Origin: Schmidtea polychroa
Lineage: Eukaryota
Direction of reading: 5' to 3'
Assembly (NCBI GenBank): GCA_044892525.1
Contig: CM097885.1
Coordinates: 5,086,001-5,150,000, forward strand
Length of the DNA stretch: 64,000 bases
Shown: positions 5,201-31,199 of the stretch, in pieces
How the letters are laid out: the number at the start of each line of letters is the position of its first letter
Numbering within the stretch: position 1 is the stretch's first letter
Notes under the pieces: generated by a model
What the model saw: the letters and a program-made list of their open reading frames with translations, nothing else
Database searches by the model: none
Told to the model about the DNA's origin: nothing
Position numbers and translations under genes: made by a program

Positions 5201-6494
5201 AGATGAATTATCCCCATGGCAAAAAAAGAAAAATCAACATACTAGTATGAAATTAATATGTGATCAAACAGACAAAACAAATTATCTCATACATTATAGA
5301 ATGTTACAATTCTATGTTAGACATGAAATGGAGATAGAACAAATTCATAATATTATAAAATTTAAACAAGCACCATTCATGAAAAAATATATTGAAGACA
5401 ACATCAAATGAGAAATGAATGTAAAAGAGCAAAAGATGCATTTGGGGACACCATGTATAAATTATTAAATAATTCTGTATTTGGAAAAACTATGGAAAAT
5501 ATTGACAAGTATACAAAGATTGAATTATTAACAAACAATAAAAAAGATTTTGCAAGATATAATAGAATGTTGGCAAAACCAACATTTAAAAATGCACAAA
5601 TATTTTGAAGAAAATTAGCTGCAATTGAAATATGAAATTATGAAAAAACATACAACAAGCCAATGTTTATTGGATATAGTATTTTAGAATTATCTAAATT
5701 ACAAATGTATGAAACATATTATGATGTATTGGAACCACATTTTGGTGATAGAATATCATTACATGCAATGAATACTGATAGTATGTTTTTAAGAGTTTAT
5801 TCTCCTGATATATACAAGGAAATATCTGAAAAATTAAATCTTGAGAAAATTAATAAATACAACTGAGGATTTGTTTAGTTTCAAAGATGAGAAACCAAAC
5901 ACCCCAATAATTAATTTTATATTTATTCGATCAAAACGATATTCTATTGAATTGGAAAATCCAACTTTTCCAAATGGTCCAACGATACAAGAAAATAGAA
6001 ATAAGGGAATTCAAAAATGTGTAACCCAAAAAATTAAACATCAAGATTATTGTATTGTTCTAGAACCAAATTCAAAGAAACAAATAGTAGTAGTTCATCA
6101 AATTAAATCTACTAAACATAATATCAAGAATCAAACAAAACTTCATTAAATAATTATGATGATAAAAAATTAATTTTATCTGATGGGAATTCATACACTT
6201 CCATTTGGAAATGATAGGATCCCCATCATATACAAGTTGAAAAAAATTAATAAAATATTAAAAACAAATTATAGAGATGTTGATGTTATTAAAATGAAAC
6301 CTGAAGAATATGAAATATTATCTAATATTTTCAACAACTTGGACTATTACATGAATTTGTATAATAATAATAATAATAATAATAATCCTATTGATTCTGA
6401 TAATAATGAATCTGAAGATTATAATATTTGTAATGAATCTGAACTTGATAATAATTCTATTGATTCTTATGTTTATGATTCTGATGAGTCATAA
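2223..6494 (+). pseudogene. Polinton-1 protein-primed family B DNA polymerase, fragmented
   Basis: Ordered motifs across frames: N-terminal C2H2-like finger, INVKNKDNKCFL*AILSALHP, YGDFEA, CWMC..DHF..YRGAAHNNCNL, FHNLFGYD, FIDSLNF, YIDATALY, GYFLEVDLKYP, KLLNNSVFGKTMEN, ILELSKLQMY, NTDS, FKDE, TLPFG. Multiple stops and frameshifts. Confidence 0.95.
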
Positions 6495-7189
6495 AGATTA
6501 TTATAATGATTCGGATGATGATAATTCTGATTAGATTCCATCATATTCCAATAGATTCCATCATATTTAACCATATTTCGTCATGAAGAAATCTGACAAA
6601 GTTTTAGAGTATATAATTTCAAATATAAAAAAATAATTACAAGAATGATTAAATATGACGTTTCTTGATTAAATATCTTTATACTGAAGCATCTTTGAAT
6701 TCTTTATTATTTTCCTTCTTTAAATTTTCATATTCCATCTTTAAATTTTCAAAATCTTCAGACAAAGAATCAATTTGACTATATAATATCCCAACTAGAT
6801 TATTCATCATTTTCATTGTGGGAACAATTTCTTCTTGCTTTTTTTTATTATTACATGTTGATTCAAAATTAAATTTTGTTTACTAATCAAATCTCCACTC
6901 AAATCAAGAGATAAATCTTCAATAAAAATTGCAAGGTAAAGTTTTTTCTCCATTAAATCACGTTGTTGAATTAAATATTTTCGAGTTTCCTTTTGAGTTT
7001 CCATTTTTATATATTTTATTTTTATTATATTAAAAATGTCAACTAATAATTTACGACATCCATTAGTTAATGGAACTGTTAATAGACTTGTAGATTTATA
7101 TAAACTTGTTGATGATTTAATATTAAAAAATAATGAAAATATTGATTATTTTGAAGAAAGAAATAAAGAAAATCTTTCATCCTTTTTTC

Positions 7190-7377
7190 ATCTTTTTCTC
7201 TTCCCATAGTTGAAGGTGAAGTACCAATCATTTTACAAATTTGAGGTTGTCTAAGGTTAGGATTTTAACTTTTTATTTTTTTGTGAATTCTACAACTTTT
7301 TGTTTTAATAAAAATATATTTAATTTGCTTGTTTCAACTATGGTTATTTGATCCATTTTCTTTAAAAATTCATCCAT
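7190..7377 (-). pseudogene. Small helix-turn-helix-like protein of Polinton-1 (frameshifted)
   Basis: MDEFLKKMDQ..., then after a frameshift NPNLRQPQICKMIGTSPSTMGRE, a typical HTH pattern (Q..I...G.S.ST..R). Confidence 0.4.
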
Positions 7378-8634
7378 TTTTATGTGATATTTATAAAAAA
7401 AATAAAGGGCATGAAAATTTTCCCCATTTTAAAACTTGAAGATTCATACTTTTCATACTTTTTTCATACTTTTTTACTTTCATACTTTTAATTATTCTTT
7501 AACCATTTCTCTCGTGCATCTTTTTTTGAATATCCTTGGGTTATTACATTTGCATTTTTTAACTTGTTAACTTGATCTTTTATCTCTTGAATTATTTGAT
7601 TGGATTTTAAAATTTCATCATTCGTCCAGAATCCATTTTCCATGGCTTTTAATTGAAATAAAAATAATTTTACTATTCCTACATCTATTGTTGTACAAAC
7701 TTCACGATATAAACTTTTCTTTTTTGCAGTGTATGATATAGACACAACTTCAGTCAAGAATAAATCTCCTGCTGAAATACTCCCAAGAATTATTGGTCCA
7801 AGTGTTAGTACTGGTAGAGTTGCAGGTAATACAACTGTTAATATTGTTGTCGCAAAACCCAAAGAATAACTAGCAATCTTTAAACAAGTATCAGCTCTAT
7901 TCCATCTATGTTTAATTTTTTATAATGTTTTAATAAATCTTCTAAATGAAGTTTTTCAGATTTGAATTCTTTTACTCTCATAACTTTGGTGGGTTACTGA
8001 TGATCAAATATTTTGCTCTTTAGTGCTGTTGCCAGCGTAACCCAAGATACAACATTGTTTACCGCTTGATACCCGTTGAATGATCAACGTTGGTACTGTA
8101 TCAAGAGGGTGAGTGCTCGCAAAAAGTGAGCGCACTACTTGCACTGTAATTGTCGAGCACTCTACTGGGTTCACGGACTGCCGATAGAAGGCTTGTGTCC
8201 GATTTGGCCTGGTCCCTTCACCAGATTGTCTTCCCAATACCATACCCTATTCATCCCCCTTATCTCCCACATACATCATTTTTTCCAATTCATGCACACA
8301 CGCTCATGTTTCATGTCAACTCTCTAGTGAAAGTTAATAATTATTTATTAAAACACCACACATAATTCAGGTTTATGTTGGGTTAATTTCCCGTTCAATC
8401 AAAATACCAAAAATTAATACTTAATTTTAATTCAGGCAATCCAGATTAAATTAAAGTTGAGTTTAATTATCCATATTTCTTTTCCTTTTAAAAATTAAAT
8501 TTTCAATTAATAATAGAAATAAAAATTTAATCCCAGGTGTTTAAATCACCTATTTATAATTAACATAATTTTGATAATTTGAAATATTTTCTTTTTAACA
8601 AACCATTTTATTTATATATTAGTAATATTTTGCA

Positions 8635-9296
8635 ATGAAAATTTTATCAGTTTTTTTTTTAATCATTGTTTACTATGTAATGTCAGCTACAGTTAATGAA
8701 AATAATTGCGAAGGTATTTGGCACTTATTTTTATTATATTTAAAAATTGTTCAGTTTGTGTTAAGTTTGTGAGACGCCTGAAAGATAGTCTAGATGGAGA
8801 TGAAAGTACAAATATCGAAAATATTGAAAATAAATTCAAAAAGATGAGCAAAACAAGTAAAGGAAAAGAATAAAGTCTGGTAAGGTATTATAACTGATTA
8901 CTATAAAATTGTAATTTATTTTTAGTGTTATTATATTGGAGGATTGGTAACATCTACTGCATATATTGTAAAACATTTGTTTCAGCCTTTGAGTTGGGTT
9001 ATGCCCGCTGAAAAAGTCTGAAAAACTAAAAGCAATGGATTCACAAATTTGTGAATTAAAATATGGTATGTTCAGTTAAGATTTTAAATATTAATTCAAC
9101 TATTTTTCAGACAAACCTATTGATCTTACTGGTATTAATCTAAACAAAGCTCGCGTTAAAGATCTCAAAACATATTAGAAAGCTGGGGTGAAGAATGTAA
9201 AGGTTGTACAGAAAAAACTGATTTTATCCGATTAATAAATGAAAAACGCCCATTTATGATCTTAAAGCAGCCAAGCAAAGAAATAAAGCCGATTTG
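8635..9296 (+). pseudogene. MANF: Captured MANF/ARMET gene copy (4 exons) inside LTR copy A
   Basis: Exons 8635-8713, 8755-8879, 8926-9065, 9111-~9296 with GT-AG introns. They encode a signal peptide, [54 protein letters not shown] and a C-terminal KADL. One stop, a Cys-to-Ser change and small frameshifts. Confidence 0.92.
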
Positions 9297-10099
9297 GAGT
9301 TTTTTCTTTTTGAGTTTTTATTCAGGATGTTGTAATTAAATAAAATATTAAAATTCTTTTTTACAATGATGTAAATAAATTTGGTAATTGAAATTAATAA
9401 ATTTAGTTTACTATTGGGTTTTGTCTTTTGATTTGATTTGACCATAATTTTGTCCATAATTTTTATAAATTATTCTATCTTTATTACTTTAAAGGGGTTG
9501 TGTAAATTATTCCACAGGGGTCTTGAGGGGAAGATTATGGTATTGGTTATTTTCTAAAATCTATATATACATACACACATCCACATATATATATACGTAT
9601 ACACATACACCCACACATATATGGATATAATTTAAATTAATAATATTGATGTCGTTTTCAGGGGGGGGGGGTGTTACTAAAAATAGATTTTAGTGATTTT
9701 CCGTAATCTTATTGGAAGATAGGGCCATTGAAACTAAATTTAGAGATAGGGGAATCCGAAAATCGATAATTTTGTTTAAAATTTTATTTTTAAGAAATAA
9801 TAATTACTTTAATAATATAATCAGTTTAGTGGGGTTACTGGGGAAAATAAAATCAATGATATCAATAAAATGTAATAGTAATACTAATGATAGTAGCAGT
9901 AATGTTAAAATAACAATAATGATAAACGGCGAATGTACCTTGATATCTTTATGAAATTACCACGGGTATATAGCTTGGGGGTCATTTAGGAATTTTAAGA
10001 GTTATCATTTTAAAATCAAATATAAGATGAATATATACATATATATACACATACACATATACACACACATATATACATATATATATAAAAGTAGTCTAT

Positions 10100-11700
10100 C
10101 TTAGTGTAAATTTAGATAAATATATAATTTGAGGGGGGTCATTTAGGAAATTTTACCACTTATATTTTTTATCATAATGTAAGTTAAATATATATTAAAA
10201 TAAGCCAATTTAGTATGTATAAGTTTGAGGGGGGGGGGGGGGGGGTCATGTGTGAACATTTACAATTTACATTTTTAAATATAATATAAGTTAAATATAT
10301 ATTAAAAATGAGTCAATTTAGTATATTTAAGTAATGGACAATGAATGTATAATTTTGAGGGGGTCAGTTATGAAAATTTCCAATTTAGAATTTTAAATAT
10401 ACTGATAGTTAAATATATATTAAAATAAGTTAATTTAGTATGCTTAGGTAATGGGTAGTGACTGTATGATTCTGAGGGGGTCATTCATAAAAATTTACAA
10501 TTTATATTTTTAAATATAATATAAATTAAATGTATATTAAGATAAGCTAATTTAGTATATTTAGGTGGTAGTTGATGACTATATGGTTTGTGGGGGTCTT
10601 TGATGAAAATTTTCCAACTATAATTTAAAAGGTAATCTAAGTTAAGCATATATATTAAATAGTCTAAATTAGTGTATCAGGTAGTGATTAATGGTTATAG
10701 GAATTAAGGGGGGTCATTTATCAAAATTTTCCAAATTTATATCGTAAAGATAATGTATTAATGTATTTAGACAATAATTAATGGTTAGGTGATCTGAGGA
10801 ATTATTAGGTTTGATAACTGCACATATATAAGTTAATTTATTGCTATATATATTGTTCTCGACTAATGTATAGTTTGAGGGGGGTACTCACGAAAAAGGT
10901 AAGTTATACTTTTATAAGTTTCAAATATACATATATAAGTTAGATTATGAATCTGGACATTTGTTTCGACCATTACGTAACTTGGGGGGGGGGGGGTATT
11001 TATAAAATATTTACAACTTTTTATAGATTATATTTTTATCGCTAACGTAGTTTATATTTTATACTTTTATGACCAAATTAAGATTATAATTTATAGTCTT
11101 TCAGCTAATATAAGTTTATAATTTATATTTTTATGAAATTAAATTTATAGTTTATGTTTTTAAAGCTAATATAATTTTATAATTTATACTTTTGAGTTTA
11201 TAATTTATATTTTATGAAGTTAAGTTAAATTTACAGTTTATATTTTAAAGCTAATATAATTTTATAATTTATATTTTTATGAAGTTAAATTTATAGTTTA
11301 TATTTTAAAGCTAATATAATTTTATAATTTATATTTTTATGAAGTTAAATTTATAGTTTATATTTTAGAGCCCATATAATTTTATAATTTATACTTTTAA
11401 GTTTATAATTTATATTTGGTGAAGTTCAATTTATAGTTTATATTTCCAAAGCTAATATAATTTTATAATTTATATTTTTATGAAGTTAAGATTATAATTT
11501 ATACTTTTATAATTAACTTAGAGTTATAATTTATAATTTTTATCGTCAATACAAATTTGTAATTTATAATTTCAAGAAATTAAATTTATAATTTATACCT
11601 TTCTAACTAATCATAATTTATATTTTGAAGAAATTAAATCTATAAGTATAATTCACATTTTTATGAAATTGAGAGGATAATTTATACTGTTATGGGTTTA
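10100..11700. repeat. Internal minisatellites of the LTR (GGGGGTCATT-anchored ~100-120 bp units, then TTTATAATTTATATTT units)
   Basis: Visible tandem units, mirrored in inverted orientation at ~14600-15300 and ~17200-17720. Confidence 0.8.
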
Positions 11701-12460: not shown

Positions 12461-12564
12461 CTTACCTACAATCTCAGAAAAATCAAAACCAAAAATTTGG
12501 CATAAGAGTAAGCATTAGCATATTTTCCTTGCTTAAAAAGTGACGAAATGTGTTAGTTTATATA
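12461..12564 (-). promoter_or_regulatory. Putative LTR promoter (TATA, Inr-like) and first splice donor
   Basis: Minus strand TATATAAA (12564-12557), TCACTT downstream and GTAAG donor at 12465-12461. The same arrangement occurs in copy C (TATATATA 52878-52871, TCAGTC 52860-52855, GTAAG 52799-52795). Confidence 0.5.
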
Positions 12565-18790: not shown

Positions 18791-18938
18791 TAAAGATAAA
18801 ATATAGAAACTAGTTTAACTTTAAACTGTTTATTAAACAACAATAATATAAACCTCAGGGGGATTCATGACCTTCTAGAATCAATTAAGATTAACGATAT
18901 AACATTTCATAAATCATTTCATTATAAAATTTTACAAT

Positions 18939-19455
18939 AGTAGGGTATTGTGTGGACCCGGGAACAAAGACATATGACGTCATCGATGACGTCACAAAGA
19001 CATATGACGTCATACCCCCGGGGGAGGGTTTTTTTTTAATTTTTTTTTTAAAATTTTTTTTAAAAATTCTTTTTTTAAAATTTATATTACGTTGCGGTAT
19101 TTTAAAATTTATTATATTTTAATTTTTAAATATATTACGTTGCAGTATTTTAAAAAACTTATTTTGACGGTTAAGTTGACAAAATTATTATTACACACAA
19201 TATAGTCTATCAGACAAGATATTCTGTCACATACAATGTATAAAAAATATTATTAGTGTCCACACACGCAACAAGTTAGTGTTCTCATCGATAGCTATTG
19301 ATATATTATTATTATTAATCTATATACTCCGAGTCTATCCGACAAAATATTCTGTCCCCTTATGGGTACTGCTCACAAGGGTACTGGTCACGCTCAACAA
19401 CTCGCAAGGGTACAATGATATTATTAAACAATGTAATAAAACACATATTTTCTAA

Positions 19456-19525
<70 letters not shown>
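18939..19525 (+). repeat. Left TIR of Polinton-2
   Basis: Reverse-complement match to 30440-30957, bounded internally by an (ATT)n tract. Confidence 0.93.
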
Positions 19526-19530
<5 letters not shown>

Positions 19531-19741
19531 ATTTCTATCATAAATCATGGTTAACAAAAAACATAGTCGAATATTATAAAATTAAGGTATTGTGTTAGCA
19601 CACACTCGTTATAATAATTAGCAATATAGTTTTTATGGTGTATCAAATCTAAACATTTCTTTTACATTTATAGTCTATCAACCAATCAAAATCATATGGT
19701 ATTAGTATAAATAAAACATTATATTTTAAATTATTTTAGAA

Positions 19742-20270
19742 ATGTCGCAACCAAATTTTATGGAAAATGTTTTAAACGGAATTGTCACCGCGAATATAGT
19801 CGACAGCCTCAATTTCCTGATCAATCGAACAGAACAAATCATTGAAGGTGAACATATCGATTATCAGCAGATGATGGAGACAGAATCCCTGGAAACCAAG
19901 AAGTATTACTTCAATAGAATATTTCAGTGTCTTTTCGATGAAGACATGAAATGGACAAGGATAATTGTAGGATTCACCTATATGAAGATAATCATTGCAA
20001 AAGGTCAACATGACTCAGAACATTATTATCAGTGGTCTTTAGAAGTAAGATTTCTTTTATAATTTATATTTTAATAATATTCATTTCTAGATAATCAAGT
20101 CCAAGTTTACCCCATGGATAGAAGCCAATGGCGGATGGGGTGTATTAAATAAACTGGCCTGCAATTTTAAAGAAACTGATGAAATCAAAAGAAAAATGAA
20201 AATCTATATAAAACTTACAACTGGAGTTGTTTTAATTTATATTTTCTGTAGATATATGAATAAAAATTAA
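19742..20270 (+). CDS. Bcl-2 family protein (160 aa; exons 19742-20044 and 20091-20270) carried by Polinton-2
   Basis: A 46-nt GTAAG..TAG intron restores an open frame with BH1-like LFDEDMKWTRIIVGF, BH2 WIEANGGW and a hydrophobic tail IYIKLTTGVVLIYIFC followed by RYMNKN. Confidence 0.8.
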
Positions 20271-20314
20271 TGTTATTGTTTTTAATAGTATATTTAAATG
20301 AAAATAATTCAATT

Positions 20315-20649
20315 TTAAAATTTATTAACACATTCGCAATCGTCATCTCCACATTTCATTATATTTTCAACGACATGATCAATACAATCATTCGTAATAT
20401 TATCTTTAGGTTCCTCTATAGGTTCATAGATTTCGTCATCAATTTCTTGAGTTTCTTCCTGATCGTCAAATCCTGAATCTTGACTCTCAACTACCCAGCC
20501 GATATTTTATGCATTTGTAACAGATAATATATCCTCAATTTTTACACCAGATATTTCTGCTAATTTTTCCAACAAAAAGTTGATTAATAATTCTAAATAA
20601 TAAATAATTCGGTATTTAATTAATCATGTTAACCTTTTTCTGCAGTCAT
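20315..20649 (-). pseudogene. Small acidic protein of Polinton-2 (intron 20633-20593, one internal stop)
   Basis: Spliced: MTAEKELLINFLLEKLAEISGVKIEDILSVTNA*NIGWVVESQDSGFDDQEETQEIDDEIYEPIEE..KCGDDDCECVNKF. Confidence 0.5.
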
Positions 20650-20782
20650 TTTCATCACTTTAAAACTATATTATAAGTTTGTTTATAGATTTTCTTTGTT
20701 AAATTTGCATGTCATTTGCATTAATGTTGCAATTAATAAAGAGAAAAAACAAATATGACTAATACATTTATTAAATATAACA

Positions 20783-21202
20783 TTAAAATAGTTGTGAAAG
20801 TCTAGCAGACATAATTTTCCAAATTGGAGAATATACATCATTATTATCAACTTTATATCTTTGGATTGCAATTGTTATATACCAATTTTCGTTTTCTTTG
20901 AAACCGATTTCATCAAAGGAATCATAAAATCTTGCATATCTGTTGTTGAACCATGCATGTTGATTACAAGATAGATTCGTATTCAACCGTTTGAAAACCT
21001 CATCAATAGATTTAATATCTATCATTGAAAGCGTGCCGGATAAGAATTGAAATTTAGTTGGAATTAGCTTGATCGGTGACGCCAATTTCATATTGATTTC
21101 TTCTTTTAAAAAATACATTTTATAGTTGTGGAACATTTGAACAGGTTGTACAAGTTCTGGAACAACTTTTGGCTTTTCAGTGCTTGAAATTTTCTTTGTC
21201 AT
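20783..21202 (-). CDS. Polinton-2 hypothetical protein (139 aa), possibly an OB-fold ssDNA-binding protein
   Basis: Intact ORF with upstream TATA and CCAAT; beta-rich aromatic C-terminus WYITIAIQRYKV..YSPIWKI. The fold is a guess. Confidence 0.6.
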   Translation of the reverse strand: MTKKISSTEKPKVVPELVQPVQMFHNYKMYFLKEEINMKLASPIKLIPTKFQFLSGTLSMIDIKSIDEVFKRLNTNLSCNQHAWFNNRYARFYDSFDEIGFKENENWYITIAIQRYKVDNNDVYSPIWKIMSARLSQLF

Positions 21203-21461
21203 CGTGAATTATGATTAAAATGAAATGGTACAGGGTTTTTATACCTATGACTATTGTTTATCAACCAATCAGATTGTTGTATGTCTTTGTTTAAATTGGA
21301 TGTCATTTGCATTAATGTTGCATTAATGTTTTTTATTATAAATATTGTTTTTTATTATTATTTCTAATATTACTTATATTATTACTATTTCTATTACTAT
21401 TATTATTATTTCTATTTCTATTATTTCGATTTACAAAAACAAAACAATTCAACATAAAAAT

Positions 21462-21844
21462 TTATTTTGATACAATCTGACTCGAGTGGTGATTTCTCAG
21501 AGTCTTCACCAAACACCATTCAACATATTGTTGATAACGGAAATTGCAACAGCTACATCCGAAAATGCAAGGAGCCTCTGCTTTCATTTCTTTCATCACC
21601 CTTCCTATCTTGATATCCCATAGAAAGGTGTTTATTATATCGAATATCCAGATTTGTGTTTGGTTGTATACCAAATCCGGAATGATAGCTGGATCTCTAT
21701 CTTGTAGAATTTCATTTAATTCTGGATAATAGAAGCATAATCTTTGCAGGATAATTGATTGATATTCATCTGTAAAAATTTGAAATTACCATAATTTGCA
21801 TGCTCTTTCATTGAGGTGATTGCGGAACTTTGTATGTTGTACAT
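21462..21844 (-). CDS. Polinton-2 hypothetical Cys-cluster protein (120 aa; putative 20-nt intron 21789-21770)
   Basis: ATG at 21844 joins in frame through GTAATTTCAAATTTTTACAG to ..QRLCFYYPELNE..PCIFGCSCCNFRY; TATA and CCAAT upstream. Confidence 0.5.
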
Positions 21845-21965
21845 TTTTGTTGAATAAATGACAACTAAACCGAAAACATTTTGTTATAAATAATCATCAG
21901 CCAATTAGATTTCGTCCAATCAGAATCATGCATTTCAATTGCATTGAATTTGCAATGATAAATAA

Positions 21966-22430
21966 TTAATTAAGTGATAATAAAAAATCTAAAAATTCAT
22001 TTCCTTCAATTATTGATTTAATTTCAGATATGATATTATCAACTATACATTTGTAATCAATATTTTTTATTTCAAGAATTACTATCTTACCGCTAGCGAA
22101 TATATTTACACACATAGGGTTATATTTTATATATCTCAAAGCTGGAAATAATTCTGGTTCGTAAAAGCATGGTATTAATTTAGCCAATTTATTTAAATTA
22201 CAAGAAAAACCTATATCGGAAGTTACGGTTATCGATTGTATTTCTAAATCATAAACATTATATTCACTAGCTTTGATTATTTCCTTACACCCCATAATTC
22301 TACATTTACCAGTTTTGAAATATATTATTGGATATATTTTACTTCTATTGATGAGTTGTTGTGGTTTCCCCATTGGAAATATCATTTTTGATACATCAGC
22401 CTTTGCCCTGTAATTTATATTTGAAAGCAT
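21966..22430 (-). CDS. TATA-binding protein (TBP)-like protein encoded by Polinton-2
   Basis: Two TBP-type repeats: NINYRA..IIYFKTGKCRIMGCK and EIQSITVTSDIGFSCNL..FYEPELFPALRY..PMCVNIFASGKIVI (compare TBP YEPELFPGLIY..LIFVSGKVV). Confidence 0.85.
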   Translation of the reverse strand: MLSNINYRAKADVSKMIFPMGKPQQLINRSKIYPIIYFKTGKCRIMGCKEIIKASEYNVYDLEIQSITVTSDIGFSCNLNKLAKLIPCFYEPELFPALRYIKYNPMCVNIFASGKIVILEIKNIDYKCIVDNIISEIKSIIEGNEFLDFLLSLN

Positions 22431-22534
22431 TTTAATGAAATAATTATAAAAAACTCAGTTATATATAGTTATTTTAAAAGGAGTTCATTTAAATTATCAA
22501 TATAAACAATAATTATATAGTTTAAATTTAAAAA

Positions 22535-23170
22535 ATGGAATTACGAAATGATGCAGTATACCAAATCGTTGGTCCAAGTGGTAGTGGAAAAACATTATTT
22601 GTTTGTAAATTACTAAAATCTAATTTGTTCAAAACAAAATTCAACAATATTTATTGGCATAGGGGCGCCGATGAAGAACATGGATTGACACAATCAAGTT
22701 TCTGTCAATTAAAAAACATGAAAATAGTAAAGGGTTTTGATAAAAACTGGTCAAGTCGTTTGAAGAAAGATGTCATCATTATCGATGATTTGTATCAAGA
22801 AGCCAATAAAGAAAAGGATTTTAATAATTTATTCACAAAAATCAGCAGACATGTTGGTGTAACAGTTATTTTCATAACACAAAATCTATTTCATCAAGGT
22901 GGGGCACATCGAACACGTAATTTAAATGTACAATATCTAGTTATTTTCAAGAATCCTAGAGATCCAACTGTCATTGATTTTCTTGGACGACAAGCATACC
23001 CTAATAACCGTAATTTTCTTATCAATGCATTTCAAGATGCTACGAAAGTACCTCATGGGTATATATTTCTCGATTTCACACAACAATGTCCTGATGATAT
23101 AAGGGTAAAAACAGATATTTTCAACCCAAAAGGTGCCATGGTTTATAAACAAAGTTCAAAACAAATTTGA
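22535..23170 (+). CDS. A32/FtsK-like DNA packaging ATPase
   Basis: Walker A GPSGSGKT, Walker B IIIDD, FTKISRH, IFITQNLF, VIFKNPRD, PHGYIFLD. Confidence 0.95.
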   Translation: MELRNDAVYQIVGPSGSGKTLFVCKLLKSNLFKTKFNNIYWHRGADEEHGLTQSSFCQLKNMKIVKGFDKNWSSRLKKDVIIIDDLYQEANKEKDFNNLFTKISRHVGVTVIFITQNLFHQGGAHRTRNLNVQYLVIFKNPRDPTVIDFLGRQAYPNNRNFLINAFQDATKVPHGYIFLDFTQQCPDDIRVKTDIFNPKGAMVYKQSSKQI

Positions 23171-23183
23171 AAACACATAAATC

Positions 23184-23678
23184 ATGTTTTCAAAAACAAG
23201 GATATCGAGTAAAAAACAACCAAAAGTTCCACCAACAACTAGTTATACTCCATCTAAAGAACTTATTACAGAAAATTTTCCTGCAATGAATCTTATTTCG
23301 AAAAATCCTAAACCTAAACCTAAAAGTAAAACCACTAAGAAAGTAAAAGTTGTTAAAAATCATCGGAGTTTCTCGTTTTTCAATACATTGTTAAAGGCAC
23401 CAAGTATGAAAAGAAACAGTATTTTGCAATCTTTTCCAAATTATGTTGTCGATGATTTACTCGATATTATACTTAAAGTAGTCAAAGGCAAGATTAAAAT
23501 CAGTAAATCTAAAAAGCAATTATTGAGTAAACATAGGAAACCTTTGCTATCATTAGTAAATAATAAAAATCGTCAACAAGTGAGAAAAATTATATATAAA
23601 CAACAAGGGGGATTTATCGGTGCATTGATACCTTTAACAATATCATTATTAGGTGAAATAATAGGAAGTCGATCATAA
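23184..23678 (+). CDS. Basic Polinton virion core-like protein with a C-terminal QQGGF motif
   Basis: Lys-rich 164 aa ending QQGGFIGALIPLTISLLG, resembling an adenain cleavage site followed by an amphipathic peptide. Confidence 0.7.
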   Translation: MFSKTRISSKKQPKVPPTTSYTPSKELITENFPAMNLISKNPKPKPKSKTTKKVKVVKNHRSFSFFNTLLKAPSMKRNSILQSFPNYVVDDLLDIILKVVKGKIKISKSKKQLLSKHRKPLLSLVNNKNRQQVRKIIYKQQGGFIGALIPLTISLLGEIIGSRS

Positions 23679-23681
23679 ACA

Positions 23682-23909
23682 ATGGGTGCTAATCCTTCAT
23701 TACCAGACATTAAATTTTATATTAAATCTTCTTGTTGTAATGGAGAAGATTTGGACGAACCCCGAAGACGAAGCCGGTTTCGGTGGAGTGGCAAAATTAA
23801 ACAAAAGAGTTCCGAATTCGAAAAAAGAAACCCAGAAGTGGTTATCAGACCAGCTTGCGTACAGTTTGAACAAACCAATGCAGAAACGATTCCCAACAAG
23901 AGTATATAA
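23682..23909 (+). CDS. Small overprinted ORF, putatively myristoylated and palmitoylated
   Basis: MGANPS (G2/S6 myristoylation consensus), SSCC and an Arg cluster; starts 4 nt after the upstream stop and overlaps the integrase in another frame. Confidence 0.5.
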   Translation: MGANPSLPDIKFYIKSSCCNGEDLDEPRRRSRFRWSGKIKQKSSEFEKRNPEVVIRPACVQFEQTNAETIPNKSI

Positions 23910-24140
23910 AACATATGGAATAAATGATTTATGGCAAATAGATTTGATGGAGATGATACCTTATTCGAAAATTAACAATGGGTATAAATATATTTTAACA
24001 TGTATTGATGTATTCAGTCGGTTTGCCCGAGCAATACCTGTCAAGGCAAAATCTGCAGATGAAATGTCTAAAGCTGTTAATGATTTATTTAAAGATGGAC
24101 ATCCTAATAACTTGCAAACGGATTTAGGTATTATTATTAC

Positions 24141-24210
<70 letters not shown>

Positions 24211-24711
24211 TTAGGTAAAGAATTCTACAATAGCAAATTCAAGCAAATCCTCAATAAATTGAAAATAAATCACTACTCAGTACATTCTCAATACAAAGCT
24301 GCCCATGTTGAAAGATTTAATCGAACATTGAGAGATAGATTAAAGAAATTGTTCGTGCATCAAGGTAATAAAAAATGGGTAAATGCTTTACCGAAAATAT
24401 TAACAAGTTATAATTATTCATCACATTGAGGACTGATTGGATTGAGACCGGTTGATATTACATCAAAAACATTCTATTCTAAAATATCTGTAAAAATTGC
24501 AAAACCTAAATATAAAGTCGGTGACCATGTTAGAATTAGTAAAATTAGTGCATCACCATTTATTAAAAATTTTGATACAAATTGGAGTGATGAAGTCTTT
24601 ATAATTTCAAAAATAAATACTAAACAGAATCCTGTAATGTATGTCATCAGCGATTATGATAACAATATTGTACAAGGAAAATTTTATGAGCAAGAATTAC
24701 AAGTTAAGTGA
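23740..24711 (+). pseudogene. Retroviral-like (c-)integrase of Polinton-2; intron 24128-24214; one premature TGA
   Basis: WQIDL, YILTCIDVFSRFA, LQTDLG|KEF, KAAHVERFNRTLR, YNYSSH*GLIGLRP, KYKVGDHVRIS, NWSDEVF, GKFYEQELQ. Confidence 0.93.
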
Positions 24712-25682
24712 ATTTTTATACTATTTTACCAAGCAATAGTTGCCCGCTTATTCATCCAGATAATCAAGCCATTAAATTCATGGTCAATCTCCAGAATCCG
24801 ATTTCTTTAAATGGTGACTGGGAATTTGCACTGCAAGATTTTACATTCGTGTACAATACATTCCCATTTTATAGTCAATGTAAGATTGATTTCAAAAGGA
24901 ATGCTATGAAAACATGTAGTGGTATCTTTATTATCAGTAATTATGATAAAACATATCATATTCCGAATCAAATATTAGATCCGCATTACTCTATGTTTTA
25001 CAAGGATGGATTAAATATCAGTTGTGATTTTAAACCATTTACAATAACATTCGAATATATTGAAGATGCCAAACGATTGGGTTGCAATAAGTTGAAAAAT
25101 GAAGTTATGGAAACAGAATATTTATTACGCTTTAATCTATTTGAAGCAAACAGTGTAATGAGAGAAGAAATCAAAATATCAGTGTCGTATAATAATGAAG
25201 TTTAAGAATCATTTACCTTTGCTGATGAATTATATTTTGATAAACTTGATGTGTTACTTAAATATTTAAAGTACAATTGTTCACACATATTTAAAAGTTT
25301 GGACATTGTGAAAGATTTGATGTTTACATTCAGTTTGAATGATGATATTTGCGAAGTTACATTTGATAAAAATTTGACAAATACACTTGGATTAGAGAAG
25401 CAGCAATATCGGGAAAAATCGGCTGGTATACATAAACCAAGAATACTTGAACATCATCAACAAATGTTCATATATACTAATATTATTGAGCCTATAATTG
25501 TTGGTGATTCCAGTGTTCCTCTATTGAAATCGGTGTGGATTGGAAAATATGAACATGATGAAGTTGTCAATATAAATATAGATAATCCCATGTATTTACC
25601 AATTTCAAGCTCATGTATAAACAATATAGAAATAAATATTCGTGACGATAGTGGAAAATATAAAATGATGATTGCTTGGTAG
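24708..25682 (+). pseudogene. Minor capsid (penton)-like protein; one in-frame stop, C-terminus apparently truncated
   Basis: FYTILPSNS..P.N...F...L..PI.L.GDWEFAL and MFIYTNIIEPIIVGDSSVPLLK..PMYLPI....NNIEINIRDDSG. Confidence 0.85.
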
Positions 25683-26183
25683 CAGCATTTATTATTTAAA
25701 ACAATAAAATGATAATTTAAGCCTTTTGCTGCAAATAATGTATTTAATGAAAGAATTTTCGACTATACGATAGTCCTTGTCAATCTCCTGGAATTTAGCA
25801 ATGTTCTTCCCCAAATACCTTTCAATCTTTCTTTTATTTCCATTCTCTTAATTCTCATTGGTTGTAAATATAATGAATTGTTTTACTAAAAACTTTTAAA
25901 ATTTTTACATTTAAAATTTCAAAATGACACAAACTAAAAATTTTTAAATTTTTTACAGCTTCTATAATTAGCTTCTAGAAGCCTAAATAAAAATATGTGA
26001 AAATATTTTAAATAAAGCCTCCAATAACTACTTATATATGCTATTTAAATATTTCAATAAATGTGTCAATATTGATTTTCAAACCCTATTTTTTAAAATT
26101 TTTTTTTTATATTATTCTAATTATTACTTTTTAATTTATTCTATTTTTTTAATTTCTTTATATATTGTCAGTTATTCTCAAAG

Positions 26184-28060
26184 TCAATGACAACAGATCA
26201 AATTCAAGATTTCATTGATTTTTTCTTTAGTGTTGATCTTTGGCTGTCTGTTTATGATGAGAATTGCTTCTTTGATTCTGACATTTTTCTTTTGGATGTT
26301 TCCATTAGCTATGATTTCTATTGAAATATTTTTTCTTTCTTCTGTTGGCTGACACTGCCGGAGATGTCTGCCCAACGAGGATGTTCCCCCAGGATCTAGA
26401 TGTTCTTTAAGTCTTTGGTGCAATGTCCTGAGGGTTCTTCCAATGTAGATTTCATTGCATACATTGCACGTGATGCAATTGACGATGTTTTTTCTAAAGC
26501 ACATATCTTTCGGTGTCTGGCAGTTTTTCATTGTGCAATTGTTTTCTCTATTTATGTTGCCTGCCAGAGCCCTTCTCAATGTCCAAGATTTATGTGCTAT
26601 CCGAATTGGAAGACCGGTACGTTTAAGTTCTTTCAGGATCTTGAAGTCGAGTATGTCACTGATGAATGGGATATTCAGATAGAAATATTTCTGATTCTTT
26701 TGTGTTAATTCCCTAGATCTTCTTGGGGTAGAATTCATTCTTTCAATGTCCTCACCTTGGTATCCGTTTCGGCGTAGGATTTTATTGAAATTTGATTGCT
26801 CTTTAAAGTTTTCGTTTTTCTCCGTGCATCGATTGGCTATTCTTCGTTTCTCGTTTCTTATGACATGTACTTTCTGTAAGTATGGAAGCGCTGATCTTTG
26901 GTGCATAAATATTTCTTTGCGAGCTGGTTTTCTGTAGAACCCGTATGTTGGAGTATTTTCTTCTATTTTGATTCTCAAATCCAATAAATTGAGGGATCCA
27001 TCTTCTTCCGGATATTCGATTTCGAACTTAATATCTTGATGAGCCGCATTGAATGTATGAAATATTTCCTCCGCTTCTTTTTTGTTTTTGGTCGTGATGA
27101 AGATATCATCTACATATCTTGCATAGAAACCGATGGGTTGTATGGTCCTCAGTGTCTGTCGTTCGAGGTTATCCATAAAGATGATTGCTAGCAGTCCTGA
27201 TATGCTAGAACCCATAGGCAGACCTTTAACTTGTTTATAGATATTTTGTTCAAAGGTAAAATAGGTGTTCTCGAGGATAACAGTAAGTAGTTTGGTGATA
27301 TTCTCGATATTCATTTCCTTTTTTAACAAGTTGCTTTCTCTTAATTTCTTTTCTAAACATTGAATAGCCTCTGTTGGTTCGATAGATGTGTATAGTGATA
27401 CGACATCAAGACTAAATGGGTATTGGAATTCTCTATGACAAATCAAGTTATTATTTAGTCTTGTCATGAGGCAGTCGCTGCTTTGAAGATGGTGTGGTAT
27501 CGTGTCTAATAAAGGTTTCAAGATCTTTGCAAGGAGCCAACTTGTTTTAGTTGTTGGTCCATTTTTGTTGGACACTATAGGTCTAATTTTGATACCAGGA
27601 CCCTCTTTGTGAGTTTTAATTAGGTGGTAGAAGTTAGGAAGATCAGAATTTTTTGTGACGAAGCTGTTGGTTATTCTGTTGTTGAGCCTCATTTCCAAAG
27701 CTATGGCTTTCCATACTTTGTTGATCTTCATTTCGATGGTGTTTGGTGACATGCGGCTGACTTTCTTGTATGTTTCGATGTTGCCGAGGTGTTCGTAACC
27801 AGCTTCACAGTAACGATTCTTCTCTATAATGCAAAATTCTCCCCCCTTGTCACTTGGTAAGTAGACGTACGGTTTCTTTTTAAGGGATTTTAATATTGCC
27901 TGTTCGTCTTTCGTTAGGTTTGAGAGATATGGTTTTCTTCTTTCCTTCTCAACTATCTCCATGATTTTGTGACAGACCTTTGAGAGTGTTGAATCTAATT
28001 CTGCATCAGGATTTGGTTGATAGAGTTTATCTGTGTTTATGTATACTGGGAGCTGGTTTT
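26184..28060 (-). mobile_element. Penelope-like retroelement (RT + GIY-YIG), 5'-truncated; open 592-aa ORF at 27962-26184
   Basis: SDKGG, LIKTHK..IRPIVS, FSLDVVSLYTSI, GLPMGSSIS, RYVDD, LNLLDL, FYRKP, CNVCNEIYIGRT.R.L..R..EH, KEAILI..QPKIN. Confidence 0.95.
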
Positions 28061-28065
28061 CGCTA

Positions 28066-30256
28066 TTTTCATTTTCATATGTAAATAAATTAAAATCATG
28101 TAAAATTCAATTTTGTCTAAAGGTGGAATTTATAAAAGATGATGAGTTACAATCTTTTGTAATCTCGGATTCCGCCCGAGTTTGGAGCGATACATTCATT
28201 GACGAAGGTATTGCTCGTTTAAATGAAAAAATAATTAAAATTAATGAGAAAGGTAGTAATTGGACTATCAATAAAATAGAATACATAAGCCTTTCATTGG
28301 CCTTTCAAAATATCATTCATGGAATATTAGTTGTATTCCTTTAACCAGCGAGAAATTCCTTAGTCTTTTTGCTAGGATTGACTCATTAACTGTTAAATTT
28401 ATAGACTCTTATCAATTTGTCAGCGAGTCTTTAAATAATGCTGTCAAAACTTTATCATCTTTACCCTTGACCGAATCAGAATTTCAGGGTACAATAATAT
28501 CTGCAAAGGGATTTTTCCTTATGATGCCGCAACTTCATTAGAGGTTTTACATAACACTCGTCAGTTACCTCCTATTTGGAAAGATGTGACTCCCGCTGAA
28601 TATGAGACAGCTCAGCGAATTTGGGTTGAAACTTCATGTACTTCACTTTTCGATTACATGATGGTTTATTTAAAACTTGATGTTTTCCTTTTAGCCGATT
28701 TTTTCCAGCAATTTAGAGCTAAGTCCATTGCTCATAACCGACTAGAGCCATTAAATTTCTTAGGGATTCCAGGTATGTCTTGGAATTCAGCCTTATTAAC
28801 TTTAAGCTCTCCAATTGAGCTCCTCACCGATATGGAGATGTATAACTTTTTCGAGGGCGGTATCCGTGGCGGACTAACTTTTGTAAATAAACATTATGTA
28901 AAAACAGACCCGGATACCGCTTTACTTTACATAGATATAAATAATTTATACGGTTGGGCTTTAAGTCAACCATTACCTTGCAGTGACTTTGAATGGGTTA
29001 CTGATGATAATTTATTAAATAATATAATTTTTGAATGCACAACGGTAGATTTAGATCTGCTTGATTATGGTTATACCATAGAAGTGGATTTAGAAATACC
29101 GACGTCAATTCACGACAAACTGGACGATCTTCCCGTTGCCGCTGAAAAGATGTGTGTACCAGGTTCGAAAATAGAGAAGCTGTTGCTTACACACAGCCCC
29201 AAGAGGAACTATGTTCTTCATTGAAGGCTTCTACAAATATTTATTAAATTAGGTGTTAAAATATCAAAAACACATAGAGCAATTAAATTTAAACAAGATA
29301 AAATTTTCAAAAATTATATTAACACAAATACGGCGTTACGAGCAGCGTCGACAAATAAACTCGATAAAAATTTTTATAAATTATTAAACAACAGTCTTTA
29401 CGGCAAGACTGTTGAAAATCTTAAAAAACGTATTAATTTACGTCTGTGTAATTCTTCACAGAGATTATTAACATTCTGTTCGAAACCGACTTTTCGTAAA
29501 TCCACGAAAATCGATGATGACTTGATTTCGGTTTTATTGAGGAAGGACATAGTGTGTTTGAATAGACCTAGTTACATTGGTCAAACCGTACTTGATTTAT
29601 CCAAACTTCGCATGTACCAGCTGCAGTATGAAGAGTTGCAAAAATATCGCGACGAATTCAACTGCGAAATTAATATTGTTGCTGGAGACACAGATTCCTT
29701 CTTCTTGGAAATTAAACATTGTAGTCTTGACATTCTTTTACCTGCGATGATTAGAGATCAATTATTAGATACTTCGAATTATGACTCAAATCATCCTTTA
29801 TATAGTAGGAACCTTGATTCTGTCATTGGTAAATTCAAAGACGAGAATAAAGGGTTATTATATAAAGATTGGGTGTTCTTGAGACCTAAATGTTACAGTT
29901 TGATGGGTGATGAGGAAAGTATGAAGGCTAAGGGGATAAGTATGAAAGATACTGGACTAACACATCAGTCGTATCTAGATTGCTATTTAAATGATAAAAT
30001 ATACACAGTCCCTCAGTTTAGAATAACGTCAAAAAATCACCAACTTTTTAGTATTAAAAATAATAAAAGAGCCTTGACATGTAGAGATGATAACCGAAAT
30101 TGGGTGAATAAAAATCAAAGTTTGGCATATGGCCATTATAATGGCGGTGACACCGATATATTTATAGATTCAACGAAAGCTATCTCAGCAGATGATACAG
30201 ATGATTTCCATGATCCAGCAGATGATAATTATTTTGGACATGATTATTTTCGATGA
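28066..30256 (+). pseudogene. Polinton-2 pPolB DNA polymerase, N-terminally deleted
   Basis: KGSNW, FIDSYQF, KGIFPY, YLKLDVFLLAD, GIRGG, YIDINNLYG, YKLLNNSLYGKTVEN, LDLSKLRMY, GDTDS, GKFKDE, LRPKCYS, KAKGI; one frameshift, one TGA and an internal deletion near 28320. Confidence 0.95.
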
Positions 30257-30439
30257 TGTGTTTAAATTATTTAATAAATGTATTAGTCATATTGTCTTGA
30301 ATATTTTTTTAACAGTAACTTTGTGAACAATTTTTTTTATACATTGTGTGTGTAATAATATTATGTTTAAGTTTTGTTAGTTACCTTTATGACCTTTACC
30401 CAGTGTGTTTTGTGACCTTTACCTTTGTGAGCAGTACCC

Positions 30440-30511
<72 letters not shown>

Positions 30512-30957
30512 TTAGAAAATGTGTTTTATTACATTGTTTAATAATATCATTGTACCCTTGCGAGTTGTTGAGCGTGACCAGTACCCTTGTGAGCAGTACC
30601 CATAAGGGGACAGAATATTTTGTCGGATAGACTCGGAGTATATAGATTAATAATAATAATATATCAATAGCTATCGATGAGAACACTAACTTGTTGCGTG
30701 TGTGGACACTAATAATATTTTTTATACATTGTGTGTGACAGAATATCTTGTCTGATAGACTATATTGTGTGTAATAATAATTTTATCAACTTAACCGTCA
30801 AAATAAGTTTTTTTAAAATACAGCAACGTAATATAAATTTAAAAAAAAATATTTAAAAAAAAAAACCCCTCCCCCGAGGGGTATGACATCATATGTCTTT
30901 GTGACGTCATCGATGCCGTCATATGTCTTTGTTCCCGGGTCCACACAATACCCTACT
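30440..30957 (-). repeat. Right TIR of Polinton-2
   Basis: Inverted match to the left TIR. Confidence 0.93.
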
Positions 30958-31199
30958 TACAATCTTTTGTTTTTTTGTTCCAATGATATTTCAATTTTTC
31001 TCTCTGGTCTTCAAATTGTTTAGTTAATTTAATTTTTGACAGACGATACATCTTAAGCAACGATCATGGTAAAAAGATCTGAAGAAACGTGGGAAAACTT
31101 AAAAGGAAGATTGAAATTTGTTTAAATAACACACAAATAGAAGATATAAAATATTTGAGTGCATAATTTATTAAATAAAATTTATGGAGTTATTTAGTA

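Follow-up and report, generated by a model that had tools for sequence, protein, structure and literature searches.

Polintons are widely held to be viruses that lack an RNA polymerase, and many DNA viruses of eukaryotes are believed to descend from the group. How does such an element bring its genes into play, and in what order? Little is known of the regulation of Polinton genes. The question is raised by a 64,000-nt stretch of DNA from the planarian Schmidtea polychroa (GenBank assembly GCA_044892525.1, contig CM097885.1, positions 5,086,001 to 5,150,000), called here the window, which is AT-rich (G+C about 25-35%) and in which positions 18939-30957 hold the Polinton in question. Its left end carries genes for a Bcl-2-like protein, an acidic protein, a 139-aa protein (p139), a Cys-rich protein and a TBP-like protein. 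A block of virion genes on the plus strand follows, and after it the gene encoding pPolB, the protein-primed DNA polymerase. An earlier note on the element, made from the letters of the window, read this as a host-modulation block followed by a virion and integration block, in an early/late layout reminiscent of adenovirus. The observation is confirmed and the interpretation partly supported. I propose, with somewhat more belief than doubt, that the window holds a dead, deleted copy of an abundant and young Polinton family whose genes form two blocks, likely expressed as an early and a late programme.

A dead copy of an abundant family

The element lies between two copies of the hexamer TACAAT, one at 18933-18938 and its match at 30958-30963, the target-site duplication. 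Its terminal inverted repeats (TIRs) occupy about 590 nt on the left (18939-19527), paired with 30440-30957 on the right; the arms align over 302 nt at 99%, 99 nt at 92% and 88 nt at 98% identity, the termini read 5'-AG...CT-3', and an ATT microsatellite forms the inner end of the left arm. Long TIRs and a 6-bp duplication are the marks of integrase-type insertion. Pfam finds pPolB (PF03175 DNA_pol_B_2, 28.4 bits against a cut-off of 25.8) at 28658-29224, in a frame that is broken in this copy, the integrase (PF00665 rve, 33.6 bits against 32.6) in the open reading frame (ORF) from 23740, the packaging ATPase (Pox_A32, 31 bits against 22.8) and, in a full-length copy, the protease (Peptidase_C5, 28.3 bits against 21.3). 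The protease gene and the gene for a double-jelly-roll capsid protein are deleted from the window copy and present in full-length copies. Positions 18939-30957 are a copy of an adintovirus-like Polinton/Maverick.

Some features of the ends deserve mention in their own right. Long ATT/TAA microsatellites lie at 19463-19527, 24129-24220 and 30440-30509, that is, at the inner edges of both TIRs and within the integrase gene, where the run translates as a stretch of isoleucine. Within the outermost 100 nt of both TIRs (18960-19010 and 30885-30935), AAAGACATATGACGTCAT units are repeated, and these contain TGACGTCA-type palindromes, which I take to be CRE/ATF-like.

What the window copy has lost can be told by comparison with four full copies of 13.4-14.9 kb, found through paired TIR hits in the animal's own genome (781 Mb, with four very large contigs) and 96-97% identical to it. 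The earlier note had suggested collecting copies by their TIRs and looking for capsid genes among them, and had supposed that capsid and protease were deleted beside a Penelope insertion; full copies do carry both genes, within a 4,043-bp stretch (6901-10944 in the copy cC2a) that the window copy lacks. The same stretch holds the end of the penton-position gene, the gene for the protein p120, and the start of the pPolB gene, the capsid gene being one of 407 codons and the protease adenain-like. In its place stands a Penelope-like retroelement of 2,412 bp on the minus strand (25665-28076), recognised by RVT_1 and by the comparison with the full copies. Its 592-aa ORF (26184-27962, minus strand), for a reverse transcriptase with GIY-YIG, is open and matches Pfam RVT_1 at 1.6e-14; the GIY-YIG match (1.1e-3) is below the Pfam cut-off. 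A further 1,118 bp are missing inside pPolB, at 28293/28297, and about 125 bp at 24706. Lesions private to this copy include a TAA stop in the acidic gene near 20507 and an intron of the Cys-rich gene cut to 20 nt, and there are frameshifts in the penton-position gene and in pPolB. The window copy is dead and internally deleted, and it is incapable of the cycle proposed below; its capsid gene, its protease gene and much of pPolB are gone. Penelope-like sequence similar to that in the window also flanks another locus, L130, which was for a time considered to be the same Penelope junction; this was dropped, L130 being a separate, truncated Polinton copy nested in a Penelope-like repeat.

How large is the family to which this copy belongs? 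Matches in the genome were scored best candidates first, so the counts that follow are minimum numbers, not proportions of the family. As a query, the outer 502 nt of the TIR gave 3005 candidates, of which 40 were scored. For the capsid protein the best 102 of 5014 candidates were scored, and every one is full length and stop-free, at 98-100% identity. All 150 scored matches to exon 1 of the Bcl-2-like gene (the best 150 of 2399) are full length at 96-100% identity, and 149 are stop-free. Judged by these matches, the family is very abundant and young, with at least 100 near-identical copies. Mavericks are annotated as abundant repeats of planarian genomes in a preprint (bioRxiv 10.64898/2025.12.11.693146).

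It might be supposed that the five accessory genes came to this locus by a local insertion, and the earlier note named the absence of the block from other copies as what would speak against its view. The left block (19560-22534, 2,975 nt) has 3478 candidates in the genome, and 33 of the 40 scored, the window included, span all of it at 94-100% identity; the block is therefore part of the element and not a local insertion. It is not invariant. Among 30 TIR loci, 17 face pPolB, 7 (counting the window) face the Bcl-2-like gene, 3 have no inner match, and 3 are variant left ends (L006, L026 and L019) without the Bcl-2-like gene. One subfamily in the same genome lacks that gene, and in it an acidic/p139 segment of 85% identity is joined to a remainder of 97%.

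Selection was gauged in 24 copies, picked as the best matches to the block: the window, 20 of the 32 other copies that span it in full, and three of the four full copies. The ratio of nonsynonymous to synonymous polymorphism (pN/pS), computed pairwise within the family, is 0.28 for the Bcl-2-like gene (open in 16 of the 24 copies), 0.64 for the acidic gene (22 open), 0.37 for p139 (23 open), 0.27 for the Cys-rich gene (19 open) and 0.75, from few changes, for the TBP-like gene (22 open); for two genes of the virion block it is 0.18 (ATPase, 20 open) and 0.44 (core, 16 open). Taken together, the five left genes have 64 synonymous and 122 nonsynonymous variants, a synonymous share of 0.344 where 0.187 is expected (binomial p 3e-7), and their pooled ratio of 0.44 compares with 0.46 for ATPase plus core. 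By this measure the left block is under purifying selection equal to that on ATPase and core. Variants confined to a single copy also show an excess of synonymous changes, which suggests that the divergence largely predates insertion and comes from a replicating, selected population.

The genes of the two blocks

The earlier note had placed five accessory genes in the left 3.5 kb, then a plus-strand block, then pPolB, and Pfam and the ORFs bear out both its coordinates and its list. Each of the five has its own promoter-like region. Three have introns, and the protease gene of the full copies has one too, read support being at hand for the Bcl-2-like intron alone.

The Bcl-2-like gene (plus strand, 19742-20270) comprises exon 1 at 19742-20044, an intron at 20045-20090 and exon 2 at 20091-20270, and was recognised by a weak Pfam Bcl-2 match and by its spliced joint. 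A profile built from exon 1 and three homologues, the only three that a word-indexed search with the exon returned, finds at the top of PDB Bcl-2 A1/Bfl-1, Schistosoma Bcl-2 and Bak (E-values 0.03-1.5), and KWTRI of exon 1 aligns with NWGRI of A1/Bfl-1. Exon 2 reads WIEANGGW and then a hydrophobic tail; KWTRI and WIEANGGW are presumably the BH1 and BH2 motifs, and the tail a C-terminal membrane anchor. The GT..AG joint 20044->20091 appears in contigs of two runs (X1 and X3) of one study. Of 10 left ends examined, 3 lack the gene, as does every metagenome relative examined; it is optional, and it looks like the sole gene of the left block that resembles host modulation. The note's label of host modulation does not fit the left block as a whole: its two genes that are conserved across the lineage would serve replication (the SSB-like p139) and transcription (the TBP-like protein).

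The first of these, p139 (minus strand, 20783-21202), was assigned by predicted structure, SSB standing for single-stranded DNA-binding protein. It has 39 relatives in an all-against-all search, no sequence match in PDB and nothing usable in the protein Atlas. Its fold as predicted by AlphaFold2 with 37 relatives (mean predicted local distance difference test, pLDDT, 91.7) is an OB-type barrel. The closest structures by VIA Z score are CP312R of African swine fever virus (ASFV) at 7.2 (root-mean-square deviation 4.6, 125 residues aligned) and a DUF2815 phage protein at 7.0, followed by the SSB of phage Enc34 (6.8), T7 gp2.5 (6.5) and baculovirus LEF-3 (5.3). RPA, PriB and SSB folds give Z 4-5, and nine chains reach Z 5. 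Among viral proteins, 24 uncharacterised giant-virus proteins match the fold at E<=1e-3. It is reasonable, with moderate support from the model, to regard p139 as an OB-fold protein resembling the T7 gp2.5-type viral SSBs.

The TBP-like gene (minus strand, 21966-22430) encodes 154 aa and scores 51 bits on Pfam PF00352 against a cut-off of 22.9. Only residues 60-140 match the TBPs of PDB (2.7e-14), and they fit either repeat of the solved proteins; the N-terminal 59 residues resemble, by eye, a shortened repeat. Its 79 homologues run from 101 to 267 aa, mostly 145-160, and relatives score 63-65 bits on PF00352. The protein looks like a compact member of the TBP family, with one full repeat preceded by a shortened first one.

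The remaining two genes of the left block were laid out by comparison of copies. The acidic gene (minus strand, 20315-20649) has exon 1 at 20634-20649, a predicted 41-nt intron at 20593-20633, to which one copy adds 20 nt, and exon 2 at 20315-20592. Its product has no recognisable relatives: Pfam finds nothing, and it does not align with the acidic protein of the metagenome contig L089 (E 0.088). The Cys-rich gene (minus strand, 21462-21844) has exon 1 at 21790-21844, a predicted intron at 21770-21789 and exon 2 at 21462-21769; in the 23 other copies the intron is variable in length, at about 46-52 nt. The protein has no match in Pfam or the protein Atlas. Neither the acidic nor the Cys-rich intron is represented by a splice joint in public contigs guessed to be RNA. 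Upstream of the acidic, p139 and Cys-rich genes (at 20705-20740, 21300-21330 and 21930-21960) are octamer-like ATGCAAAT / ATGCAAT repeats followed by CCAAT boxes, which look like a shared enhancer-like module. Joints at 21298->21954 and 20650->20761, and a loose end before 22533, were considered as splicing and rejected, for they resemble variant DNA copies.

The virion block runs in the order ATPase, basic core protein, MG-ORF, integrase, penton-position gene, p120, capsid, protease, with pPolB next. The ATPase (22535-23170, plus strand, as are all the genes of this block) is of the A32/FtsK type. The core protein (23184-23678, 164 aa) is named from its position and composition; it has a conserved hydrophobic tail, GGF..L(I/L)P..LG, and I take it to resemble adenovirus pX, Pfam giving no Adeno_PX match. 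The MG-ORF (23682-23909) overlaps the start of the integrase gene in another frame. Within the family its pN/pS is 0.85, or 1.21 in the part that does not overlap, values that are not decisive; from them the ORF was at one time called spurious. That judgment was reversed, since an ORF that starts with MG and has a Cys-Cys pair some 15-30 residues in recurs in 13 of 13 elements examined, and the ORF is taken as a genuine small gene whose product begins in the manner of a myristoylated protein. By analogy with myristoylated minor proteins of other virions, the product perhaps attacks membranes at entry.

Further along, the integrase gene (23740-24704) is broken, with the ATT run at about 24129-24220 and the deletion of about 125 bp at 24706. 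The penton-position gene (24699-25664) is frameshifted and cut at 25664. It is named for its place, encodes 355 aa in the full copies, and has 28-35% identity to its counterparts in relatives; neither Pfam nor a profile search of PDB found anything for it. The gene for p120, 120 aa in the full copies and absent from the window copy, has no Pfam match. The 407-aa protein likewise drew no match in Pfam or in sequence and profile searches of PDB. With 30 of its 174 homologues (E<=1e-3) it was modelled at pLDDT 87.9, and the model matches the capsid proteins of PBCV-1 (Z 27.4), faustovirus (26.8), Sputnik (22.3), mavirus (21.1), PRD1 (15.8) and the adenovirus hexon (14.6). The top 16 structural rows are all double-jelly-roll proteins, one of them a scaffold of an orf virus (a poxvirus), and there are 251 viral structural matches at E<=1e-3. 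As modelled, it is a double-jelly-roll capsid protein. Its best viral structural match is an uncharacterised protein of Cotesia bracovirus, the only one at 25% identity; the matches also include a 'MELD virus' protein.

The first exon of the protease gene is conserved and tiny, ATG plus a single codon, and leads into a GTAAGT intron of about 40-50 nt; this arrangement is present in the full copies and in all six relatives with a protease match beyond the two-codon exon. Between protease and pPolB the full copies have an 87-aa ORF (cC2a 9123-9386; L039 3593-3856), which may be a further small gene, and a ATAAACAA box at cC2a 9148. The pPolB gene itself, about 1,300 aa in the full copies, persists in the window as remnants at 28077-30256 (plus strand) with its internal deletion and broken frames. 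A gap at 12561/12640 of one copy was considered as a pPolB intron and rejected, since a second copy is read straight across the gap. The loose ends at 23325 and 23806 that look like poly(A) are templated A-rich runs without AATAAA, and no use was made of them.

How much of this is shared beyond the species? Searched with the capsid profile, metagenome contigs yielded 67 loci and viral contigs no relative. Eight metagenome contigs keep the gene order from ATPase to protease, at 41-74% identity (ATPase 54-74%, capsid 41-59%). Homologues of p139 and of the TBP-like gene lie upstream of the ATPase, on the plus strand, in L089 and L064, and a TBP-like gene follows the protease in L099, L100 and L098. 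No Bcl-2-like or Cys-rich gene is detectable in the metagenome relatives examined, and the end-proximal slot of L089 (222-719, minus strand) is occupied by a gene for a ubiquitin-conjugating enzyme (E2; UQ_con, 1.7e-12). Because the relatives keep the SSB-like and TBP-like genes and swap the one nearest the end, p139 and the TBP-like gene are, to judge from these contigs, lineage-conserved, and the end-proximal accessory gene is exchangeable. The relatives differ from the window's family in other ways. Their pPolB gene is on the strand opposite to the virion block (L089 10746-13484, L064 9692-12496, L083 3373-6138), where the window's family has both on the same strand, and the penton-position gene is tandemly duplicated in L089 (5616-7684), L082 (1408-3460) and L086 (371-1830).

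Boxes and the proposed switch

The plus strand of the virion block of one full copy has ATAAACAA 7 times where shuffles lead one to expect 0.76 (none of 500 reaches 7), and the minus strand has it not once. In nine elements, this copy and eight relatives, the region from ATPase to capsid has 72 instances of ATAAAC(A/G) on the plus strand and 0 on the minus, against 18.9 expected from strand-specific dinucleotide shuffles. The extended box is TATAAACAA(T/A), with T at position -1 in 54 of the 72. In the full copy a plus-strand box stands before every gene from ATPase to capsid, at a distance from the start codon of 33 nt for the ATPase, 39 for core, 85 for the MG-ORF, 65 for the integrase, 19 for the penton-position gene, 100 for p120 and 41 for the capsid; relatives have TATAAACAA before the protease gene too. 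The ATPase box is in non-coding DNA in all nine elements, 33-61 nt before the start, and the capsid box is 32-80 nt before its start. Elsewhere the boxes often lie inside the gene upstream, where they fall in two reading frames (YKQ/DKQ and INK), which argues that the constraint acts on DNA.

The window copy retains seven boxes, each on the strand of the next gene. In the divergent promoter region between the TBP-like and ATPase genes (22431-22534), TATAAACAA is at 22501-22509, 33 nt before the ATPase ATG; boxes at 23145 and, inside the core gene, at 23596 would serve, by their position, core itself and the MG-ORF. The enrichment is local and strand-specific, for ATAAACAA is not enriched in the 64 kb as a whole (16 against 14.2 expected). 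In place of TATAAACAA, the Bcl-2-like, Cys-rich and TBP-like genes are preceded by CCAAT and canonical TATA(A/T)A boxes. L064 also has two clusters of ATAAAC(A/G) on its minus strand, three boxes at 929-957 and four at 3145-3175, outside the virion block and with no obvious gene downstream.

From two kinds of promoter I infer an early/late switch. Once the element has entered a cell or been de-repressed, its left block would be transcribed first, by host factors. The Bcl-2-like protein would keep the cell alive by blocking cell death, the OB-fold p139 would coat the strands displaced as pPolB carries out protein-primed replication, and the TBP-like protein would recruit host RNA polymerase II to the TATAAACAA boxes, turning on the virion genes. 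A bolder form of this proposal, which I regard as possible and tend to doubt, is that the family is a still-active adintovirus-like virus with hundreds of genomic copies, in which host-type promoters fire the genes for the Bcl-2-like protein, the SSB and a miniature TBP, and the latter reads TATAAACAA before every virion gene, often inside the preceding gene.

Several observations sit badly with the proposed switch. The promoter classes do not split cleanly by block: ATAAACAA also stands 40 nt before the acidic ATG, and p139, which has both kinds of promoter, has a box at -58. The early/late layout of the earlier note draws indirect support from the existence of two promoter types and is weakened by boxes within the supposedly early block. 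In L089 the TBP-like gene comes directly after a box-bearing acidic gene, and may be co-transcribed from the box promoter. The penton-position box is only 19 nt from the first ATG, and would fit as a promoter only if a later ATG is used, as relatives suggest. The recurrence of the box may be due in part to conserved peptides (YKQ, INK, DKQ), and ATAAACA fits what I take to be the consensus of forkhead factors. The within-family pN/pS of the TBP-like gene is 0.75, from few changes. As to the early proteins, exon 1 of the Bcl-2-like gene reaches only 20.4 bits on Pfam PF00452 (E 8e-4), short of the gathering threshold of 31.4 because exon 1 alone could be scanned; the contigs with its splice joint come from runs none of which is recorded as RNA, their RNA origin being guessed; and the structural match of p139 is moderate, its best Z being 7.2 with no chain at 8 or above. 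The putative SSB of the earlier note is a reasonable reading with moderate support.

Suppose, then, that the anatomy is as described and host factors alone read TATAAACAA, be it the ordinary TBP or a forkhead-family factor, the TBP-like protein having some other job such as damping host transcription or acting at the early genes. The 54 of 72 boxes that begin TATAAA would be workable host TATA boxes, ATAAACA equals the forkhead core RYAAAYA, and boxes stand before two left-block genes as well. It would be harder to account for their strict orientation (72 plus, 0 minus) and narrow distance to the next start codon, which a core-promoter element fits better than an enhancer site, for the conserved C at position 7, which departs from the canonical TATA consensus, and for the company that a TBP-like gene keeps with the virion module in L089, L064, L063, L099, L100 and L098. 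I consider reading by host factors alone unlikely. Far less probable is that the box is no promoter at all, being either a 3'-end signal of the polyadenylation type for the upstream gene or a by-product of conserved peptides and of coding sequence rich in A. Most boxes are indeed close to where the gene before them ends, one falls across the stop codon of core, and the ATPase box of L089 and L064 follows a small upstream ORF; in the window's family, however, there is no plus-strand gene upstream of the ATPase box. The sole 3' end mapped, that of the p139 mRNA, whose poly(A) tail is at 20756, 13 nt past AATAAA, uses that signal, and the nearby box is downstream of the poly(A) site. Distances from the upstream stop codon vary widely and those to the next start are narrower, and neither the two reading frames nor 72 boxes against 18.9 in shuffles are what a by-product would give.

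A different doubt concerns not the boxes but the virus. The family might now be a transposon only, copied in the germ line without particles, its left genes passengers with no role in infection. The evidence does come entirely from integrated copies, and the scan of viral contigs found no relative. Yet at least 102 capsid genes are uninterrupted, their proteins 98-100% identical, and both blocks are under purifying selection, a state that would be hard to maintain without use; the synonymous excess among single-copy variants points to spread from a replicating, selected population. I find a transposon-only family improbable, a little less so than boxes that are not promoters. The proposal of an early and a late programme in two blocks is preferred to all of these.

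Comparable systems and the neighbourhood

The proposed division of labor resembles that of adenovirus, with its E1B-19K Bcl-2 homologue, E2A DNA-binding protein, protein-primed polymerase, IVa2 ATPase, pX, adenain and major late promoter. The parallel extends to a putative cell-death blocker, a candidate protein for binding single-stranded DNA, a protein-primed polymerase, a packaging ATPase, a basic core protein, adenain, and a hexon-type capsid with a candidate penton, and to the placing of regulatory genes at one end with virion genes next. It does not extend to a single major late unit with alternative splicing, for here each late gene has its own short box, nor to the TBP-like factor and the integrase, which the Polinton element encodes and adenoviruses do not. 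If the switch is real, it would amount to the early/late logic of adenoviruses and herpesviruses in minimal form.

Viral SSBs of the T7 gp2.5 type, including ASFV CP312R (PDB 1je5, 5odk, 8hw5), resemble p139 in its predicted OB fold (Z 6.5-7.2), and p139 belongs to a protein-primed replicon, which needs such a protein. It differs in having only 139 aa and no sequence similarity, and an acidic C-terminal tail, typical of gp2.5, is not evident in it.

The nearest known kin are the Polintons/Mavericks and the proposed Adintoviridae, which share with this family pPolB, rve, long TIRs, a 6-bp duplication, an A32-type ATPase, an adenain-like protease, a double-jelly-roll capsid and accessory genes adjoining the core genes. 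What seems to set the family apart is an accessory block with lineage-conserved genes for a compact TBP-like protein and an OB-fold SSB-like protein, introns and host-style promoters in accessory genes, and a TATAAACAA box for each virion gene. Starrett et al. 2021 (PMC8502044) report that adintoviruses encode Bcl2 and IAP homologues as well as pX-like domains and have 'Oncoid' genes upstream of PolB; in their paper TBP is found only in figure legends on non-animal MELD viruses. The words 'promoter' and 'splice' are absent from the preprint version of that paper, and SSB and myristoylation terms occur 0 times in the paper. Literature searches found no paper that describes, for Polintons, a TBP with its promoter, an SSB or a myristoylated protein, and supplementary figures S1 and S2 of PMC8502044 may show more. 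The earlier note wondered whether the element represents an undescribed lineage. With 174 capsid homologues its relatives are many, and accessory Bcl2 and IAP genes of adintoviruses are already published (PMC8502044).

A precedent for a TBP-type factor in a virus without its own RNA polymerase is the TBP mimics of beta- and gammaherpesviruses, such as ORF24 of Kaposi's sarcoma-associated herpesvirus (PMC12529657), which go with TATT-type late promoters, a non-canonical TATA-like late box. At 154 aa the Polinton protein is no large mimic and belongs to the TBP family of Pfam itself; its box is TATAAACAA, and its binding to that box is putative.

The family offers a compact and testable model in an animal of a kind that is easily kept in the laboratory: a defined box per virion gene, its own TBP-like factor, a candidate SSB, and an optional, end-proximal Bcl-2-like gene. 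The window copy itself is ordinary debris; it is the family that is worth bench work, and its at least 102 uninterrupted capsid genes bear on the annotation of the host's genome and on its stem-cell and stress transcriptomes.

Other Polinton remains lie nearby. The window opens within a 940-bp fragment of the same family (from 733 nt before the window to position 211, assembled from L132 and the window), which has the last part of the penton-position gene together with p120 and the protease gene, the capsid gene being missing. Beside the fragment, at 2995-5707, is a pPolB only 26-35% identical, and so belonging to a different Polinton family.

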